This document shows positions 2,072 to 14,519 of a stretch of 14,519 nucleotides of DNA, in pieces; the stretch's first letter is position 1; each line of letters starts with the position of its first letter. Where the stretch lies: the UHGV virus genome UHGV-0203503, one strand, 5' to 3'. The translations under genes and the position numbers were made by a program. Below the pieces are notes generated by a model, which searched no databases, was not told the DNA's origin, and saw nothing but the letters and a program-made list of their open reading frames with translations. The DNA comes from a virus.

Positions 2072-2098
2072 AGCCCTCACTTAGAGGGCTTTTTGTTT
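2072..2098. terminator. Bidirectional intrinsic terminator between convergent transcription units
   Basis: Stem AGCCCTC (2072-2078) / GAGGGCT (2084-2090), 5-nt loop, TTTTTGTTT on the plus side; minus-side tail TTGGTTTTA. Overlaps the stop of the head-morphogenesis gene. Confidence 0.55.
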
Positions 2099-3027
2099 GC
2101 TGATTGCCATGCCTCTCGCTGCTTATCAAGTCTTTCCTGCGATGACTCAAGAATAACTGGCTTTCCATCCATTAGCAGTGTTGGTACTTGTGCGCAATGA
2201 CAATTCCTTCGGTTGGCAACTTCACTATAGAACGTGTCGATTTCTTCTGGCGTGTAAAACCTCCCGTGTCTCGCCGCGTGAGTATGGCGGGTCGTGCGCA
2301 TTAATGCCGATTGCCACAGCATTACCGTCTCAATACCTAACTCTTCGCGCGCTTCAATGACTTCTCTCCTGTTTGCCTGCCGCAGCGTTCCGGTGATTTC
2401 TGTTTGCGCCAACTGTTTTGCGTAACTGTGAGACACATCGATACGCTTAACGATGTCGGCTTCAACATCACGAGGATTAGCGCCTCGAGCAATGCCTTCC
2501 ATAATGACAGATGCCAGTTGCTGACGGGAATAATCACTCAATCCGCGCCAGTCTGAATATCCTTGCGTGTACGCTAGCTGGAGTCGATTCAGATAAGGCT
2601 CACTGTAGAGTATCGCGGCAATCGGCCTCTGCTCGGCATAAACCGGAGACAGGCTTGATAGCTCTGAGTTAGCCTTCTGCGTGCCAGCATGATGCGCATC
2701 ACCAATGAACACATTAGCCCACATCCTGCCGTGACCGAAGTCGTCACCTTCAAGCAGAATCTCGTCAATCAGCGCCTGCAACTCATCCATGAAAGTGGCA
2801 GCCCGCGCACTACTAAAATCGTAGAAATACAGACCGCTTGATTCTGCGTTGGTCTGGCTGCTCGGAATGGTGCGAAACAACTCAAGCGCACGAGTCCTGA
2901 GTTGTTTGTATTTGCGCGTTATCACCTTATCCATCTTCGACAGTCGCGTTGCAGCGCCTAACGGGTCGGTCAGGCTCTGCGATATGCGCGGTTGTGGCAA
3001 CCTTGCATTAAACCGGAGTATTTTCAT
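2077..3027 (-). CDS. Phage head morphogenesis / minor capsid protein (Mu F-like, SPP1 gp7 family), ~316 aa
   Basis: Lies immediately downstream of the portal gene on the same strand; C-terminal region ([18 protein letters not shown]...) resembles Mu-F-like proteins from memory. Start set at internal ATG 3027 (GGAAGA RBS) because the track ORF start 3111 lies inside the portal gene. Confidence 0.6.
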
Positions 3028-4420
3028 TTTCGTCTTCCGGCGGCGTGTCTTCGCGATAATTTTCGTCCAGCTCAATCGGCTCCATACCCACCATGCCGCG
3101 AGCCTCATCAACAGTCAGCAATGCAGATTGACCAGCATCAAAGAACGACTTGTTCGCAGTTGCGAGCTTAGACAGCAATTCGGCCTTATCCAGCTCTGAT
3201 GGAGCCAGCAGGTCATCCCACTTAACCTTGTAGCCGTTTGCCGGGGCTTTATCGACAATGCCGAACTGAATCATGCGCTCAACGAACATTGAGATGACGT
3301 AATCAACCCATGTTTCGCGGCGCTGTTTTGCGGTCATCGCCTCCTGCATCTTGTCCTCGTCGCTCGCAAGGCGTCCGGTTTGCTGGCCAAAAATAACGGT
3401 GAACGGAAGTGCCATTGATGCGGCGAACTGGTTGGCAGCAACTTCCCATGTTGGTTTCGGGTCGGCTGGTGTCACAGCGAGAACTTTTGCATCCGCGCCC
3501 ATTGTGAACATGGCTGCGTCAATCCCGGAGTTCAGCGCATCAATGTTCTCATTCATGATGTCGGTAAGCTCTTCAATATCGACACCCATTGACTGAGCTA
3601 GGCTTGCTGGCGTTACGTTATCCTTCGTGTAGTTAACCGCCAGTTGGCGGCTAGCATTCTTCAGGAAGCCCTCTGCGGAGCTACCGGAAACCTTAGCCAT
3701 GTCGATAAGGCTGTTGTAGCCAGCACGCAGCATCGGGATGCCACTGAACATACTACCGTCAAAACTACCCTCAGCCAGAATGATGATGCGGTCTGGGTGA
3801 ATCTGTACGGAACGCTCAGGCTTGCCATTGCTGTCGAAATCTTCCACGGCGCTTTCCTGGTATTCGTACATCTCAGGCATACCGTAGTCTTCGCTGGTTT
3901 CGTCGTTATTCCACGCGCTGACGCGGAGCTGCTCCTCCCATACAGGAATAAAGCGAACGATGGATTTATCTTTAATGCGGCGGGTTTTGGTGATGTCTAC
4001 AGGCTCACTCCACTGCTTGCCGTCGCGGATTTGCAGGATAACGGCGGAATAGCGGTTGATGGCGTTGCGCTTGTCAGCCTCCTTGATGAACGGGTAGGCG
4101 CGCTTCATCATGCCGTTGATGGACAACTCCCACGACGTTGAGTTCTTATCATCCTCTCCATCTTCAACCACTTCAGGGTATTTCTGCCAGCATTTATTAA
4201 TAATGCGGTTAATACCAGCGGCGGCAGCTGGGTGTCGTTCATAGGCATAACGGAACATCTCAGCGGTAATTTCCTGCGGGTAGCCCAGCTCCTTCCACAT
4301 GAACTCACGCTTCTGGTCAAGATTCTTCCCGCCAGCACAAAGCCTCTGCTGCTGAATTGCCCGGTTATTGTTCGCTACGCGGTCGCGTATATAGGCGTTT
4401 AATGCATCAATTTTTGACAT
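3008..4420 (-). CDS. Phage portal protein, 470 aa
   Basis: 470-aa ORF between terminase large subunit and Mu-F-like gene in the conserved order; acidic C-terminus. Assignment is by position and size, not by a recognised motif. Confidence 0.6.
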
Positions 4421-6288: not shown

Positions 6289-6317
6289 GCCCTCATTTGA
6301 GGGCTTTATTTTTATCG
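6288..6317 (+). terminator. Intrinsic terminator of the plus cassette, lying 7 nt from the terL stop
   Basis: Stem AGCCCTC (6288-6294) / GAGGGCT (6299-6305), loop ATTT, followed by TTATTTTTAT on plus; no T-tract on the minus side. Confidence 0.55.
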
Positions 6318-7736
6318 CCTGCGTCGGATTAGCATTCCGCTTCCGCGCTGGACGATGTGGTCATTTAGTGCGTAACGAACGGCATCCCAGAAGTGGTTAA
6401 ATGCATCGACAATATCAGTCAGCACATTCCCCGTCAGCTTATCGACCTTGTAGCTGTACATCGTTGCTTCATTCTGCATTTCCTTGCATCGCTCGTGGAT
6501 GATGATGCTGTCACATCCGCGCAGCCACGTGACGCCATCCTCAACGCTTCCCGGCCATTTAGTGCACGGGTGAATATCGAATCCAGAGCGCTTGATGTGA
6601 CTGATAGTCTCAGGTCGAGCGCAGTCTGCATACCATCGCGCGCGCTTAGCCATAGGGAATGATTGCTCCATCGCAGCTGGCGTATCGGTAATCTCAAGGC
6701 CAACCTTGCCATACTCTCGATTAATATAAATGTTGCGCCGTCCATCTGGTAATTCTTCGATATAAACCTCAACCATCGCGGTAGGATCGGTGGAAAACCC
6801 GAAGTCCATCCCGAAGTATGGGCCATGCCATTCAGGTTTGACTTCAAAGTCATCAACGCGCCATTTGCCACCGAATACCTGCTCGTCGCTTCGCTTGTTA
6901 AAGGCTCCCATCCAAATCCAGCGGTAACGGTCGTAATCAGTTCGTTTCATTTGCTCCATGGCGGATGGCAGCGGTGTATCCCAGAACCACGGGTTGTCTG
7001 AATAGTTACATTCGATAATCAGAATTTCATCATTTTCGAATATTCCATCAACCATCTGTGAGTGATAAGGAGCAATCCAGTTTTTCCATGTCGGGTCTGT
7101 TTCCTTGTTGGGGTTAAATGAGCACCACAGCTCGGAATTGGCGGCGCGGATGGTAGGCACGAGAATGTCCCAGCTTGTCTGGCTGACGTTCTCCGCTTCC
7201 TCTACCCAACCGACGGTAATGCCAGCAAAGCCCTTAACGGTTGTCTGATTGCGATACAACCCCTTAAAGCGAAACTTTGCTTTGGTCTTCTTGTGTGTTA
7301 TCTCGTTGTTGATAACGCGAAACTCAGCTGACTCGCCTTTGCGGGCTATCTCATCAACAAGCTCCTGATAGCTTGAGTCTTCAATGGATTGCTGAATCTC
7401 ACGGAAGCAGGCAAAGCGGTCGGGTCGAAACCTTGCGCGCTCAGTAAGGATGGTGATAATTGTTCTCGTTTTCCCTGACCCACGCCCACCATAGACAAAC
7501 TTGAAACGTTTGGGGTATAGCAGACGTTCCAGCTTTGCCGGAATGAGGTGGTCGGCATGAGTGGTTGCATTGGTCACATCATCAACGCCAGTAGCGGTCA
7601 TCCTTAACCGCTTGATGACGTTTTTCTGCATGTCGCAGATACCAAAGATAGCTGATTCTGCGACATCTGTCATTGCATCATCAATCTGCGCTTCCAGCTT
7701 TTCTATTGCCAGCGCGGAGAGGCGTTTACGAGCCAT
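6312..7736 (-). CDS. terL: Phage terminase large subunit, ~474 aa
   Basis: Walker A VYGGRGSGKT, Walker B-like ITVGWVEEAE, nuclease-domain-like GMDFGFSTDP. Start set at ATG 7736 (GGAG RBS, 11-nt overlap with the terS stop) rather than track start 7805. Confidence 0.88.
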   Translation of the reverse strand: MARKRLSALAIEKLEAQIDDAMTDVAESAIFGICDMQKNVIKRLRMTATGVDDVTNATTHADHLIPAKLERLLYPKRFKFVYGGRGSGKTRTIITILTERARFRPDRFACFREIQQSIEDSSYQELVDEIARKGESAEFRVINNEITHKKTKAKFRFKGLYRNQTTVKGFAGITVGWVEEAENVSQTSWDILVPTIRAANSELWCSFNPNKETDPTWKNWIAPYHSQMVDGIFENDEILIIECNYSDNPWFWDTPLPSAMEQMKRTDYDRYRWIWMGAFNKRSDEQVFGGKWRVDDFEVKPEWHGPYFGMDFGFSTDPTAMVEVYIEELPDGRRNIYINREYGKVGLEITDTPAAMEQSFPMAKRARWYADCARPETISHIKRSGFDIHPCTKWPGSVEDGVTWLRGCDSIIIHERCKEMQNEATMYSYKVDKLTGNVLTDIVDAFNHFWDAVRYALNDHIVQRGSGMLIRRRR

Positions 7737-8172
7737 TCTGCTGCTCCAGCAATTTCTCCAGTCGTTCAAGGCGCGCGGCGAGTTCGGTAATTTCCTGAAT
7801 ATCAAGGCCAGACTTGATAATGTCTGCCATCATCTTTCCGATGTCGGCAGGAACAACGCCAGTGGATACACCCTTGATGATTGCGTCCATTTTTTGCACC
7901 GGGGTTCCGTCAGCAGGGAAGTCGAACTCCACAGGAGGAGCTACAGGCTTAGGAATTGGGTTGAGCCTCAGGAATATCTCTCGAAGCATACTGGTAGCCT
8001 GAGCGTCTTCGCATGTCATCGCCTTATTGATGTAATAAGTGACGAATTCAATCTCACTCATCGGTGTATTCGCAGCACGAAGCGCCTCAAGCAGCACAGT
8101 GCGATAGCTCTTTCCGCGCGGAGGTGGTTGATTTGTAGATGAAAATTTGTGTTTTGGATTTGGGTTTGCCAT
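7726..8172 (-). CDS. terS: Phage terminase small subunit (probable), 148 aa
   Basis: Immediately upstream of and overlapping terL; basic N-terminus and helical C-terminus; start at ATG 8172 (track ORF extends to 8247 but first ATG is at codon 26). Confidence 0.6.
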   Translation of the reverse strand: MANPNPKHKFSSTNQPPPRGKSYRTVLLEALRAANTPMSEIEFVTYYINKAMTCEDAQATSMLREIFLRLNPIPKPVAPPVEFDFPADGTPVQKMDAIIKGVSTGVVPADIGKMMADIIKSGLDIQEITELAARLERLEKLLEQQNGS

Positions 8173-10605: not shown

Positions 10606-10634
10606 AATCTACATCAGTTGTGATTCTACGTCAA
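10606..10634 (-). promoter_or_regulatory. sigma70-like promoter P4 for the minus operon 10575 to 8300
   Basis: Minus strand reads TTGACG (complement of 10629-10634), 17-nt spacer, TAGATT (complement of 10606-11); same architecture as P2. Confidence 0.45.
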
Positions 10635-10640
10635 CAGCAA

Positions 10641-11025
10641 GTTACCCAAATAACGATAATTCCGGTAACCAGGAGCATAAAAACCGGTAACTGTTATAAA
10701 TCAATTACTTACTATTCATTCATGCCATTTTACCATCAAAAAAGTTACCGGAGTTACCGGTCGCCCGGTAACTTGAAACCCGCATGCATCAAGGCTCTCA
10801 GGAGAGTTACCGGATTTACCGGGTAACTCCTTACATATATAAAAAGTGTTGAATTTCTTATTATGTATATGATTTATAAGCGTTTTATTCAATTTTGATA
10901 CAAATTCTCATTTTTGAAATTTTTATAAGCTCATATGCAAAAAATCCGGTAACTACGGTAACCCTATAGTTATCAATAGCTTACGTCGGTAACCGCTCGG
11001 TAAAAACCCGGTAACTCCGGTAACT
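10641..11025. repeat. Iteron-like array: about 14 copies of CCGGTAAC / GTTACCGG flanking an AT-rich core (10828-10944)
   Basis: Exact CCGGTAAC at 10662, 10684, 10765, 10946, 11008, 11017; exact GTTACCGG at 10744, 10753, 10806; one-mismatch copies at 10815, 10955, 10986, 10997; palindrome GTTACCGGtcgcCCGGTAAC 10753-10772; IHF-like TATCAAtagcTTA 10971-10983. Confidence 0.7.
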
Positions 11026-11065
11026 ACTGTAAAGATGCGTAAGTAAGCTCATTATCTTGCTGTCG

Positions 11066-11094
11066 TTGACGTGTACATAATATTCATGTATATT
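11066..11094 (+). promoter_or_regulatory. Near-consensus sigma70 promoter P5 for the plus operon 11120-13784
   Basis: -35 TTGACG 11066-11071, 17-nt spacer, -10 TATATT 11089-11094; ~25 nt leader to AGGAGG and ATG 11120. Confidence 0.5.
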
Positions 11095-11119
11095 TTTTAC
11101 ATGACAAAAGGAGGGCTGA

Positions 11120-11398
11120 ATGTACCCAGATGGCACTAAACTAATGTTTGCATACGAGCTGTTATCTTCAATGAAATCTGGTGAACTGGTTGGTATTCAC
11201 TTCGAGAATGAATACTCAAGCGAAATCATCAAAGGAGAAAAGGAAAATTGCCGCTCCGTGGTTATTGATGAAAAGTACCGAATGACGCACAACATGTTCA
11301 GGTCTTACTGCACCAGAATAGCCAATGAACAAGGCATGGTTATAAAAACAAAAACCAGTGAAAGCAAAAAATTCATGTATATCTGGAGAGTCCTGTGA
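11120..11398 (+). CDS. Hypothetical protein, 92 aa
   Basis: AGGAGG 11109-11114 five nt before ATG 11120; stop overlaps the next start. Confidence 0.5.
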   Translation: MYPDGTKLMFAYELLSSMKSGELVGIHFENEYSSEIIKGEKENCRSVVIDEKYRMTHNMFRSYCTRIANEQGMVIKTKTSESKKFMYIWRVL

Positions 11399-13026
11399 TG
11401 ACTGATTCAAAGAAAATCATTGAACTAAAGGAATCTCTGAAGCCAACAGGTAAGCCTGATTCTGGAAATCCACTTGATGAAATTGACGTGCAAGAATTCC
11501 GAGAAGAATACAAAATCCCGCCTGGCTCTCTTGGTGAATTCATGTGCGAGATAGAGAATCATTTTGAAAATCGCGAAGAAGGAGAGGTTTACAGATTGCC
11601 GGGTGCTATCGCTCTTGCTCAAGTGATGGCTGGAAGATACATAATTGGCCCAAGCGCAAAAAACAAGTGTGCCACGGGGACATTTATTGTTGGTCGCTCT
11701 GGCGCAGGTAAGGGTGCTCCATCTGATTTTGTTAAGGCTTACTCAGAGAATCTTGGAATCACTCCACGCGTATCAAAAAGCACAGTAACTTCATTGCGAC
11801 AAATCAAAGAGCGCCTTATTGAGGCTGATGGTTTCTTGCTTTATATCGCAGATGACTGCCCTGAACATCTTCAGGCTTGGTCAGATACGCGATCACCTCT
11901 TGGTGAAACGGCATCATGGTTCAGGACGTCCATTAGTGGCGACTGGTTCCCTGAGTCTCCTGTTGTTACATTGTTTCAGGAGAAGCTGGCCAGCGCTCAA
12001 AACCCGAAGTTAATACTCTCTGCAGCGCAGGCTCAGGGGTGGATGATACCTCGCATCGGCGAATCTGATGGCGCTATAGATTATCGTCGGCTTGCAAAAA
12101 TGAACCATGACATTGGGAGAAGATTAAATCACGCCATGCAATGTTATGACCTGTGCATTAACGAGAAGGGAATACAGAACGTAAGGTTCATTCCGTTCAT
12201 AACCGTGACCCCAGAGCAGGGAATTGCAACAGTACGGAGATGGGAAAAGGATGGTGGCATGGGGAGATCTCTTTTCATTAAAGGTCATGAACACATGCCG
12301 GAACTTAAGAATACTCCTGACATGGAAATCAATAAAACAATAATAAACGAATGGAAACCAAGAATTCCAGGTGGTTTTTTTAATGTGGAATATGCCAATG
12401 ATGGTGTTTCGAAATACTATGAGATGTTGCGCAGGCGCATAGACAAGTCAAGCAACATTCCAGGTGTAATTGGTAGCGTCGGCCCTCGCTCTGCTCAGAT
12501 GGTTATTGAGCTTGCTACTCTTTGTGCATTTGCTGATTTATCATCGCGCAATGGCATGACTCCGCAGGTAAAGGAATGCCATATTGAATGGGCATATGCA
12601 ACCGTAATGAACAGCATGTACGACCTGCGTGATTATCTGGAGGGAGAAGCAGAGTTTGATGGCCTTGAAAACACTGAGTGGGACAACATTGTTATGAAGG
12701 TTAAAAAATGCATTGAATCAAAGGCTTTCGCTGAAAAGCCTTATATTTCAGTTGTCAAAAACAAACTTTGTCGCGACAGAATCAGTAAGATAATTTCCGC
12801 TGCCGATTCAAACTCAATTCAGGTTACGCCGGATAAATTTACTTACGAGGTCATCATTGCGATATCTGAAAACAGGCATTCACCAATAGAACTCGACCCT
12901 GAGAACCCATCAAACATCCGGCTTTCTGGTGGCGGTTCATGGTCTGGATTGCGCATGAATGCATCAGTCAGGAATATCCTGTCATCAGCAATGAAGCGAA
13001 TGAGATTTATGAGGAACTTGAAATGA
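11398..13026 (+). CDS. Large hypothetical protein, 542 aa, with a glycine-rich loop GRSGAGKG and a hhhhDD motif (FLLYIADD); function unknown
   Basis: Longest ORF in window; ATG 11398 overlaps upstream TGA; GGAG 11384-11387. The glycine-rich loop is not a canonical Walker A (K followed by G, not S/T), so no NTPase call is made. Confidence 0.6.
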   Translation: MTDSKKIIELKESLKPTGKPDSGNPLDEIDVQEFREEYKIPPGSLGEFMCEIENHFENREEGEVYRLPGAIALAQVMAGRYIIGPSAKNKCATGTFIVGRSGAGKGAPSDFVKAYSENLGITPRVSKSTVTSLRQIKERLIEADGFLLYIADDCPEHLQAWSDTRSPLGETASWFRTSISGDWFPESPVVTLFQEKLASAQNPKLILSAAQAQGWMIPRIGESDGAIDYRRLAKMNHDIGRRLNHAMQCYDLCINEKGIQNVRFIPFITVTPEQGIATVRRWEKDGGMGRSLFIKGHEHMPELKNTPDMEINKTIINEWKPRIPGGFFNVEYANDGVSKYYEMLRRRIDKSSNIPGVIGSVGPRSAQMVIELATLCAFADLSSRNGMTPQVKECHIEWAYATVMNSMYDLRDYLEGEAEFDGLENTEWDNIVMKVKKCIESKAFAEKPYISVVKNKLCRDRISKIISAADSNSIQVTPDKFTYEVIIAISENRHSPIELDPENPSNIRLSGGGSWSGLRMNASVRNILSSAMKRMRFMRNLK

Positions 13027-13214
13027 GAACAATATCAGGTGAACTTTGTCGCTCAGAAGGTTCATGGCATTTCAGGCCGCATGGTTATTCGACGTGGTTT
13101 TTCTGGAGCGGCATTAACAAAGTATGGATTCGCTCTAATTACCACGTTCTTGATAATTATTGGCACAGATTTTGTGTTGGTTATGTTTATATTTCAAAAT
13201 TGATGATTAAGTGA
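13023..13214 (+). CDS. Small aromatic-rich hypothetical protein, 63 aa
   Basis: ATG 13023-13025 overlaps stop of the 542-aa gene (ATGA); Trp/Tyr/Phe-rich (STWFFWSGINKVWIRSNYHVLDNYWHRF). Confidence 0.35.
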   Translation: MRTISGELCRSEGSWHFRPHGYSTWFFWSGINKVWIRSNYHVLDNYWHRFCVGYVYISKLMIK

Positions 13215-13224
13215 GGGCAAGAAA

Positions 13225-13479
13225 ATGGATGTGAAAGATAAAGTTTTATACGTGATGAGAAAGAGGAAATCCATTGAAAAGACGCTTGGGATTTGTCGAA
13301 AGTTCTCCGTTGCTACGTGGAGTTTACGTCTATCGATGGCGAATGAATTTCCTGATGATGAATGGACAGCGGCAAAGTTACGGAAGGTTCTGATTTCTCT
13401 TTGTAAGGATGGTCTTGTGTCAAAGGATTTAAATAACAGTCGCATCGGTAATTCGGTTTGGATTCTGGAGGAAAACTGA
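13225..13479 (+). CDS. Hypothetical protein, 84 aa, possibly a small winged-helix DNA-binding protein
   Basis: GAGGG 13213-13217 seven nt before ATG 13225; basic N-terminus and helix-turn-like segment; the DNA-binding call is a weak impression. Confidence 0.4.
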   Translation: MDVKDKVLYVMRKRKSIEKTLGICRKFSVATWSLRLSMANEFPDDEWTAAKLRKVLISLCKDGLVSKDLNNSRIGNSVWILEEN

Positions 13480-13784
13480 TGGCTAACCTACAGCTTGCCG
13501 TCAAAGGCGAATACTTCGATGCCATGATTCGTGGAGAGAAAACGGAAGAGTATCGCCTTTTTAATGACTACTGGAAGAGGCGACTTATTAACTTTAAAGA
13601 TAGCGGACAGATTGGAAGGAAGTACGAACGGTTAATTATCACAAAAGGATATCCAAAGAAGGACGATAAATCCAGGCGGATTGACATCCCATATGATGGA
13701 TGGACTGTTAAAACAATCACGCATCCTCACTTCGGTCCTGATCCAGTGAAAGTGTTCGCAATAAAAGTTAACATCAAAGCGTAA
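13479..13784 (+). CDS. ASCH-domain protein, 101 aa
   Basis: Contains the ASCH signature GxKxxExR (IRGEKTEEYR) near the N-terminus; GGAGG 13467-13471 seven nt before ATG 13479, which overlaps the upstream stop; track ORF begins earlier at TTG 13458. Confidence 0.6.
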   Translation: MANLQLAVKGEYFDAMIRGEKTEEYRLFNDYWKRRLINFKDSGQIGRKYERLIITKGYPKKDDKSRRIDIPYDGWTVKTITHPHFGPDPVKVFAIKVNIKA

Positions 13785-13788
13785 CAAA

Positions 13789-13808
13789 AACCCTCCAGAT
13801 GGAGGGTT
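13789..13808. terminator. Bidirectional hairpin terminator between convergent genes
   Basis: Stem AACCCTCC (13789-13796) / GGAGGGTT (13801-13808), loop AGAT; minus-strand transcript is followed by a U-rich tract (UUUGUU), the plus side by a weaker tail. Confidence 0.5.
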
Positions 13809-13812
13809 TACT

Positions 13813-14481
13813 TTACCTGCTTACTGACATTTTCTCTATCAACTCGCCAGCGTCATAAATCTTTCTCCTGATTCTCTTTGCCATCCTGATAGTGTCAGCA
13901 TCATCAGGCAACATCACCGGAAGCCCTGCGTTTTCCGCAGAGCACAGTTCGTCAAATTTATAATTAACTATGCAGCGTAACCGTGCTTTATTCTCATCGC
14001 TAACAGAACGCACTACTTCCCACATGTTTTCCGGCGACCAGCAGCACCAGACATGCGCGCCAGTGAAGTAATGGCATTTCCACGCATCTGCATAATCAGA
14101 CACAAGATAAATAAACTTTCCGTTTTCTTCACCGATTGGGCTTATCGCGCCGCGCGTGAGTTTGCCGTTGATGGCTGAGTCCTTGTTGTATCCTGCTTTG
14201 TAGAATGTTCTGAACGCATCACCATCCATGCCAATGAATGCCACGTTGCACGGCTTCATTGTGTCAGCGTGCACCATCTCAACCGCAATAAGCTCTCCAG
14301 ATTTGCCTCTGACGACGTTAACGTCGCAACCAATACCATTTATCAAAGTCCACTCATTCATCGCGACACTCTTCGTTTTAGACATGATTGCTGCGACTTC
14401 CCGCTCTGTGATGAAGTCATCGTTGTAATTTATCTTCGGCAGTTCCTTCCTGATAGCCTCCAGCTTTTCGCGTGGATTCAT
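13813..14481 (-). CDS. Hypothetical protein, at least 222 aa (true start may lie beyond the window end)
   Basis: Track ORF; the reading frame stays open upstream of the first ATG to the window edge (..PEALEALGGFLN-M..); Cys/Trp-rich segment HVWCCWSPENMW; no recognised family. Confidence 0.45.
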   Translation of the reverse strand: MNPREKLEAIRKELPKINYNDDFITEREVAAIMSKTKSVAMNEWTLINGIGCDVNVVRGKSGELIAVEMVHADTMKPCNVAFIGMDGDAFRTFYKAGYNKDSAINGKLTRGAISPIGEENGKFIYLVSDYADAWKCHYFTGAHVWCCWSPENMWEVVRSVSDENKARLRCIVNYKFDELCSAENAGLPVMLPDDADTIRMAKRIRRKIYDAGELIEKMSVSR

Positions 14482-14519
14482 GTTCAGGAATCCACCAAGC
14501 GCCTCCAGTGCTTCTGGAA

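Follow-up and report, generated by a model that had tools for sequence, protein, structure and literature searches.

We analysed a window of 14,519 nucleotides (nt) from the viral genome UHGV-0203503, given as one strand and numbered from its first letter, with emphasis on the operon at 11120–13784 and on the array of short repeats (iterons) that precedes it. The second gene of this operon codes for a 542-amino acid (aa) protein, which all 11 phage records that hold it call a hypothetical protein. Profile searches and structure prediction indicate that it is a very divergent AAA+ helicase of the DUF3987 superfamily (superfamily 6, SF6), related to the minichromosome maintenance (MCM) helicases. 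Together with the iterons and a small coupled gene, it probably constitutes a replication-initiation cassette at 10641–13026. The locus comprises the following features.

10606–10634, minus strand: putative leftward promoter, TTGACG-17-TAGATT (9/12 match), for the divergent early operon; left edge of the presumed origin region
10641–10829, mixed orientation: left iteron block, 10 GGTAA[C/A] sites with the consensus cCGGTAACt, several pairs of them 9 bp apart
10830–10945, no strand assigned: AT-rich spacer of 116 bp with 19% GC, including the lowest-GC 100-nt stretch of the window
10946–11033, plus strand: right iteron block, 6 GGTAA[C/A] sites, all in plus orientation at a spacing of 9 or 11 bp, and in addition one degenerate copy
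11066–11094, plus strand: putative rightward promoter, TTGACG-17-TATATT (10/12 match, the best in the region)
11110–11114, plus strand: putative ribosome-binding site GGAGG, 5 nt ahead of the first ATG
11120–11398, plus strand: 92-aa gene
11398–13026, plus strand: 542-aa gene, ATG at 11398 (its listed open reading frame, ORF, begins one codon earlier, at GTG 11395)
13023–13214, plus strand: 63-aa gene, whose start overlaps the helicase stop codon
13225–13479, plus strand: 84-aa gene (phrog_2814)
13479–13784, plus strand: ASCH-like gene (phrog_625), ATG at 13479, alternative TTG at 13458

The genes, overlaps, motifs and iterons were all found where a preliminary description of this DNA had placed them. 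The overlapping start and stop codons that it reported for the first three genes can be read directly: TGATG joins the 92- and 542-aa genes (1 nt) and ATGA the 542- and 63-aa genes (4 nt). The 84-aa and ASCH-like genes are likewise joined by TGATG (1 nt). The 63- and 84-aa genes do not overlap; a 10-nt gap separates them, and GAGGG stands before the 84-aa start. The strong promoter and perfect ribosome-binding site of the same description held in part. GGAGG is present and the promoter-like site is the best in the region, but sites of this kind are no more frequent than expected by chance (8 found, 9.0 expected), so the case for a strong promoter is one of position and match quality. The two divergent promoter-like sites are about 430 bp apart and bracket the iteron and AT-rich region. 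Transcription from them could activate the putative origin, or iteron binding could autoregulate it.

The family of the 542-aa protein emerged through intermediates. Searches with the protein itself against Pfam, NCBIfam and PADLOC gave no usable match, and the Pfam MCM family (PF00493) did not match it either. The first lead was phrog_3022, labelled DNA primase, with an expectation value (E) of 1.9e-12; the alignment covered the C-terminal part of that profile (positions 341–711 of 788). A word-seeded search of 5.8 billion proteins returned 10 clusters, each without a Pfam assignment. When a profile of 11 homologues (A1) was compared exhaustively with 1.84 billion representative proteins, 87 matches were obtained; DUF3987 was present in 48 of the 74 distant ones, and 20 of these 74 had an N-terminal Prim-Pol domain. 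The proteins P0026 (E = 4e-11) and P0030 (E = 2e-10) match the A1 profile and score 35.3 and 40.5 bits in their own right against DUF3987, for which the gathering score is 27 bits. Sequence homology to bona fide DUF3987 members is thus found by way of P0026, P0030 and phrog_3022. The preliminary description had recognized no family, and had itself named a confident family match as the finding that would count against it; profile search and fold now place the protein in the DUF3987/SF6/MCM-like superfamily. No plasmid homologue of the helicase was found, and nothing thus points to a replicon of a plasmid or phage-plasmid. A metagenome scan yielded 12 loci, mostly of known types, adding little new diversity.

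Structure prediction led to the same superfamily. The AlphaFold2 model of the 542-aa protein (predicted local distance difference test, pLDDT, 80; predicted template modelling score, pTM, 0.75) has an MCM-like AAA+ fold. Foldseek aligned it over its full length in BFVD with the 'Replicative DNA helicase' of Salmonella phage LPSTLL (E = 1e-18), with Prim-Pol fusions and with DUF3987 proteins. The nucleotide-binding fold with a non-canonical P-loop that had been suspected earlier was therefore borne out by an AAA+ fold in the model and by G or Q after the Walker A lysine. The glycine-rich loop GRSGAGKG spans residues 99–106 and FLLYIADD residues 146–153. Among the 11 homologues, S101, G102, G104, K105 and D153 are invariant or nearly so; the Walker A lysine K105 and D153 are invariant, and the Walker B acidic pair D152/D153 aligns to the DE of the family. 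Alignment of A1 to the distant relatives also matched an arginine-finger-like GGMGR290 and a sensor-2-like R364, both invariant among the homologues. R290 would thus serve as the arginine finger, R364 as sensor-2 and T271, in TVTP, as the probable sensor-1 equivalent. The hhalign comparison of A1 with a second profile, A3 (probability 99.96%), was used to map motifs only, because it is circular: A3 was collected with the A1 profile. Over residues 215–260 its register conflicts with the AlphaFold2 strands, and the model was preferred there.

Compared with typical members, the protein carries a helical insertion of about 75–85 residues (roughly 186–258) between the Walker B and sensor-1 strands. 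Its N-terminal 80 residues are modelled as an all-helical domain. The C-terminal region consists of helix–helix–helix–hairpin elements and a basic tail (521–542); in the model, the helices at 450–490 and the strands at 497–499 and 506–509 would fit a winged helix. This winged-helix-like region (421–520) has a net charge of 0 and is well conserved across iteron types. We count fold and family as established on these profile and model data, and helicase activity and polarity as predicted.

The iterons are strongly concentrated upstream of the operon. CCGGTAAC occurs in 9 copies against 0.11 expected, every one within 10662–11024, and GGTAAC in 17 copies against 3.2 expected, 13 of them within 10641–11024. 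Upstream of the 92-aa gene, 16 GGTAA[C/A] sites form the two blocks, and on the far side of the spacer, the minus-orientation sites at 10806 and 10815 are opposed to those of the right block. Two sets of short repeats around an AT-rich region, beside an initiator gene, make up the layout of an iteron-type origin, and the spacer at 10830–10945 is a likely candidate for the DNA-unwinding element. The same succession of block, AT-rich spacer and block, followed by the small gene and the helicase, was observed in Bas77, KpnS_VR6602, the loci L045, L046 and L047, and Klebsiella phage KLB16 (here without the small gene); in L055 the layout is cut at the contig end. AT-rich spacers lie between the blocks in those relatives whose intergenic sequence was inspected. 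The homologues that share this layout are 33–61% identical to the window helicase, and their iteron cores are related and distinct, as listed below.

Bas77 and L046: GGTAAA
KpnS_VR6602: GGGAAC
L047: GATAAC / TATAAC
L045 and L055: GGTAAC and GGTAAA
KLB16: AGTAAA

KLB16 (L048:6824–8911), with its AGTAAA iterons, holds the most distant phage homologue of the helicase, at 33% identity.

Comparison with sister phages showed that the iterons and the helicase are exchanged together. In many of these phages, DNA identity to the window (91–94%) is lost at about 10640 and regained at 13018. The segment that diverges therefore comprises iterons, 92-aa gene and helicase, no more and no less; its mosaic boundaries are 10641–13017. 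Bas78 fills the same slot with unrelated iterons (CGTGGGG, 9 copies), which also lie on both sides of an AT-rich stretch, and with a 72-aa gene and the gene of a canonical DUF3987 helicase (Pfam DUF3987, E = 1e-34, 120.9 bits). The pair of 92-aa gene and helicase recurs with GGTAA-like iterons in seven lineages. The replication-initiation role, which had been put forward as one hypothesis, is favoured by the iterons with their AT-rich spacer, the helicase fold, the adjacent DnaG-type primase and the exchange of the cassette as a unit. The preliminary description had further read the tight coupling as a stoichiometric complex of three genes. In relatives, only the 92-aa/542-aa pair is conserved; since the loci checked (Bas77, KpnS_VR6602, L045 and L046) have no 63-aa gene behind the helicase, a two-gene unit is supported and a three-gene unit is not.

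Two further observations concern the exchanged slot. At its left junction, a conserved stretch, TTCACCCTCGTTTGTTTCGAT.AGTTCAATCTACATCA, is present in the window, in Bas78 and, with one substitution, in Bas77. In the Vi II-E1-like contigs L025 (2728–3000) and L040 (2713–3000), an ORF of 90–95 aa (…YYGVDYHKASKKFRARV…) lies directly upstream of a canonical DUF3987 helicase, in place of the 72-aa gene of Bas78; it may resemble the AP2-type DNA-binding domains of homing endonucleases.

The small partner gene is the more variable component. In seven lineages, a gene for 76–98 aa ends at the helicase start codon. The AlphaFold model of the 92-aa protein (pLDDT 95; its input alignment included 72-aa Bas78-type sequences) shows an alpha-beta3-alpha-beta2 arrangement, which suggests a winged-helix-like fold. 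Its C-terminal half is basic, with a net charge of +6, and PADLOC gave no match for it. Kinship among the small proteins was supported by hhalign between the 92- and 96-aa groups (E = 2e-9), between the 92- and 76-aa groups (E = 3e-7) and, more weakly, between the 76- and 79/82-aa groups (E = 2e-5). The 72-aa partner of the Bas78 type was also considered as a homologue of the 92-aa protein; this was not established (E = 0.12, at best 0.011 via the 76-aa group). Bas77-type phages have two tandem small-partner paralogues (76–82 aa and 96 aa) before the helicase instead of one.

L003:1918–2157 and L003:2160–2450 (Bas77): tandem paralogues
L014:2404–2652 and 2621–2950: tandem paralogues

We compared the small proteins with the iteron cores. 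Window and L045 have the GGTAAC core in common; their small proteins are 82% identical over residues 53–80 and 42% over the N-terminal half. For the window and KpnS (GGGAAC core), the corresponding values are 57% and 40%. These identities, the basic C-terminal half and the neutral, conserved winged-helix-like region of the helicase favour the partner as the protein that reads the iterons, a role for which we see about an even chance. The 92-aa protein is also a candidate helicase adaptor. By analogy with the two-component initiator of papillomaviruses (E2/E1), and in contrast to the self-loading Rep helicases of Staphylococcus aureus pathogenicity islands, its family may be an undescribed origin-specificity adaptor, which would read the iterons and recruit or load the MCM-like DUF3987 helicase; we offer this as a tentative and still rather doubtful proposal. 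If it were true, the iterons, adaptor and helicase would form a self-contained cassette, swapped by related phages to change their origin specificity and thereby, for example, possibly to avoid cross-interference in co-infection.

Initiation at this locus could proceed as follows. The rightward promoter would drive two translationally coupled genes, for the putatively winged-helix-like 92-aa protein and then for the 542-aa AAA+ ATPase. Sequence-specific binding of the iterons would most likely fall to the 92-aa protein through its basic C-terminal helix and hairpin, either unaided or jointly with the helicase, which would contribute its C-terminal region and basic tail. Helicase hexamers would then assemble on both sides of the AT-rich spacer, the spacer would melt, and the helicase would unwind outward. 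Synthesis would be primed by the convergently encoded DnaG-type primase.

A number of results weigh against the helicase cassette. Pfam DUF3987 (PF13148) gave nothing for the 542-aa protein even at E values up to 1, its gathering score of 27 bits not being reached. Sequence searches of the PDB with the single sequence and with the profile returned noise only, and NCBIfam nothing meaningful. In hhalign, A1 scored a probability of 0.06% (E = 0.75) against A4, the profile of the Bas78-type DUF3987 helicase, both profiles being shallow. The sole stretch aligned includes the sensor-2 segment, and BLASTP found nothing between the two helicases. Because this direct comparison is not significant, membership in DUF3987 is transitive and structural. 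The motifs are atypical as well: in all 11 members, the Walker A lysine is followed by G or Q where S or T would be canonical, and Walker B reads DD instead of DE, with N in place of D152 (ND) in some members. ATP hydrolysis could therefore be slow or regulatory. On the side of the partner, the small-protein helices of the three GGTAAA lineages are quite dissimilar, which makes the covariation between iteron core and helix a weak argument and not a decisive one. No homologue of the small partner was detected anywhere in the KLB16 genome (best E = 0.25); as this phage has the helicase and the iterons, the partner is not universally required. Finally, origin function, the iteron-reading protein and helicase activity and polarity are all predictions.

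The same atypical motifs, a Walker A without S/T and a Walker B of DD or ND rather than DE, would suit an AAA+ origin-binding initiator or loader. Such a protein would not translocate as a helicase but act as a nucleotide switch like ORC/Cdc6 or DnaC; it would remodel the iteron origin and recruit the host DnaB, so that the host helicase replicates the phage. The odd P-loop is, however, not peculiar to the 542-aa protein, since DUF3987-positive remote relatives share the variant, with D, Q, E or G after [S/T]GxGK. One DUF3987 protein, a PriCT-DUF3987 protein, is a proven 5′–3′ helicase that needs its Walker A and B motifs (PMC11724360), and the putative R290 and R364 are invariant, as expected of an inter-subunit ATPase ring. 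We consider the loader unlikely. Somewhat different is the possibility that the iterons are mainly operators, through which the 92-aa protein regulates the two divergent early promoters, replication starting elsewhere or by recombination. The repeat blocks do lie between and close to the two promoter-like sites, the right block ending 33 bp ahead of the −35 hexamer, and recombination functions exist in these phages (exonuclease VIII in Bas78; exonuclease VIII and a recombination protein in KLB16). Yet 16 sites around a 116-bp spacer of 19% GC exceed what an operator needs and form a classic origin layout, as in the origins of Staphylococcus aureus pathogenicity islands (SaPIs; PMC9371898). The repeats are, moreover, exchanged with the helicase and not with the leftward genes that they are supposed to regulate. 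Iteron replicons combine autoregulation with origin function, and regulation is thus compatible with a replication cassette; iterons serving chiefly as operators appear quite improbable to us.

A counter-defence or host-takeover module, the other hypothesis of the preliminary description, would agree with the early-gene position and with the small accessory genes (63 aa, 84 aa and ASCH-like) in the same transcript. PADLOC gave a very weak match of the 84-aa protein to DruF (E = 0.011) and nothing for the 92- and 542-aa proteins, and no result spoke for the idea. The core pair has the fold of a helicase and relatives in a helicase family, and it is accompanied by iterons and a primase. For the operon as a whole, we regard such a module as highly improbable; the three accessory genes could have a counter-defence role.

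These three genes are accessory early genes outside the replication machine. In the 63-aa protein, 15 of 63 residues (24%) are W, F or Y, and no family match was found in Pfam, PHROGs or NCBIfam. The ORF is intact in 9 distinct alleles, in most of which synonymous codon differences from the window outnumber non-synonymous ones, and it looks like a real gene. It is also present behind the Bas78 helicase, which has no detectable pairwise similarity to the 542-aa protein; being found behind both helicase types, it is independent of the cassette. The only strong match of the 84-aa protein was phrog_2814, whose function label is unknown, and no evidence was found for the DNA-binding role once proposed for it. 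The ASCH assignment of the last gene fell below the cut-off in Pfam (E = 0.15) and was sustained by phrog_625 (E = 5e-44) and by RefSeq homologues named ASCH domain-containing. The 84-aa and ASCH-like genes are absent from Escherichia phage swi2.

The remaining genes place the window in a known group of phages. Judged by its sequence, it is part of a virulent siphophage near swi2, Skatevirus-like. At the DNA level, the region of the operon shares 93.5% identity with Escherichia phage vB_EcoS_swi2 (genus Swiduovirus), and further relatives are Bas77–81, IME207, Sf11, C1 and Vi II-E1. The home of these relatives is a Skatevirus-centred cluster of small siphoviruses (BASEL paper, PMC11990801). 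A Mu-F-like head protein, a portal and a large terminase are encoded in the left half of the window, and the operon is flanked on its right by a hairpin and a primase gene.

277–705, 2077–3111, 3008–4420 and 6312–7805: DUF7448 protein, Mu-F-like head morphogenesis protein, portal (Phage_portal_3), large terminase (Terminase_3 and Terminase_3C)
13788–13808, no strand assigned: hairpin CCCTCC-AGAT-GGAGGG with a perfect 6-bp GC-rich stem, between the operon and the primase gene, read from the sequence
13813–14519, minus strand: DnaG-type primase, 3′ two-thirds, oriented towards the operon and truncated where the window ends

The primase fragment is 93% identical to residues 84–317 of the swi2 'DNA primase' and matches phrog_510, DNA primase (E = 4e-31). 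Orthologues in Bas78 and in metagenomic contigs contain Zn_Ribbon_Prim. The gene lies 29 bp downstream of the operon in convergent orientation, and L045 and L046 have the same arrangement; in KLB16, the primase is not adjacent to the helicase and lies about 9 kb away. The hairpin is a probable bidirectional terminator between the convergent operons; a consensus terminator scan missed it. Rfam and tRNA scans of the whole window gave no Rfam family and no tRNA. The stretches examined showed no polymerase gene, its absence from the phage as a whole not having been checked.

The gain in annotation is twofold. A hypothetical protein can be renamed a replicative helicase, MCM-like and of the DUF3987 type, and the DNA ahead of its operon can be marked as the probable origin in Skatevirus-like coliphages, among them Bas77, Bas80 and Bas81 of the BASEL collection. 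The sister phages amount to a natural experiment: their origin cassettes are interchangeable and have iterons with differences of one or two bases. Such cassettes could show how the MCM-like helicases of phages are directed to their origins and whether specificity is conferred by the small partner.

The closest known systems are the DUF3987 (PF13148) SF6 helicases of phages and mobile elements, such as AgaPH (a PriCT-DUF3987 protein) and the helicase of mycobacteriophage Corndog, with which the 542-aa protein shares an MCM-related AAA+ core. According to the profile alignment, they have in common the Walker A motif [S/T]GxGK and Walker B. Further shared elements are the arginine-finger motif G..R (DGGMGRSLF), the sensor-2 arginine with a hydrophobic helix behind it (R364..QMVIELATLCAF), possible winged-helix-like elements at the C-terminus, the association with a primase and the match in fold over the full length; in sister phages, a canonical DUF3987 gene replaces the 542-aa gene in synteny. 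The 542-aa protein differs in lying below every curated threshold, with a transitive link only, in its Walker B of DD/ND instead of DE and in its helical insertion of about 75–85 residues. It also lacks a fused PriCT or Prim-Pol domain, and its gene stands behind one dedicated to a small partner. For the MCM helicases of archaea and eukaryotes, the sequence identity to the 542-aa protein is 9–15%, their Walker A is different, and in place of their N-terminal domain with its oligonucleotide-binding (OB) fold and zinc element, the phage protein has the 80-residue helical domain.

With respect to the origin, the window resembles the self-loading initiator helicases of SaPIs (Rep) and of staphylococcal cassette chromosomes (SCCmec; Cch). 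The order of iterons, AT-rich stretch and iterons is the same, and specificity varies between related elements in those systems too. In SaPIs, iterons with a core of 5–6 nt form two sets with opposed sites around an AT-rich centre, beside the helicase gene (PMC9371898). The SaPI origin lies downstream of rep, whereas that of the window would lie upstream of the helicase, between divergent promoters. SaPI Reps read their iterons through their own C-terminal winged-helix domain and need no helper; the window type usually has a small coupled partner. The winged-helix-like region of the window-type helicases, neutral in charge and conserved across iteron types, is unlike the reading domain of SaPI Rep. 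Rep1 and PriRep5 are SF3 helicases, while the 542-aa protein belongs to SF6. The initiators of iteron plasmids, RepE and Pi, have two winged-helix domains, in contrast to the one small domain of the 92-aa protein; sequence similarity is lacking, and the scores are too low for a claim of homology.

AAA+ initiator helicases with neighbouring iteron origins are familiar, and the locus is not a new kind of system: it is probably a replication-initiation module of a known type, built on a very divergent DUF3987/MCM-like helicase.

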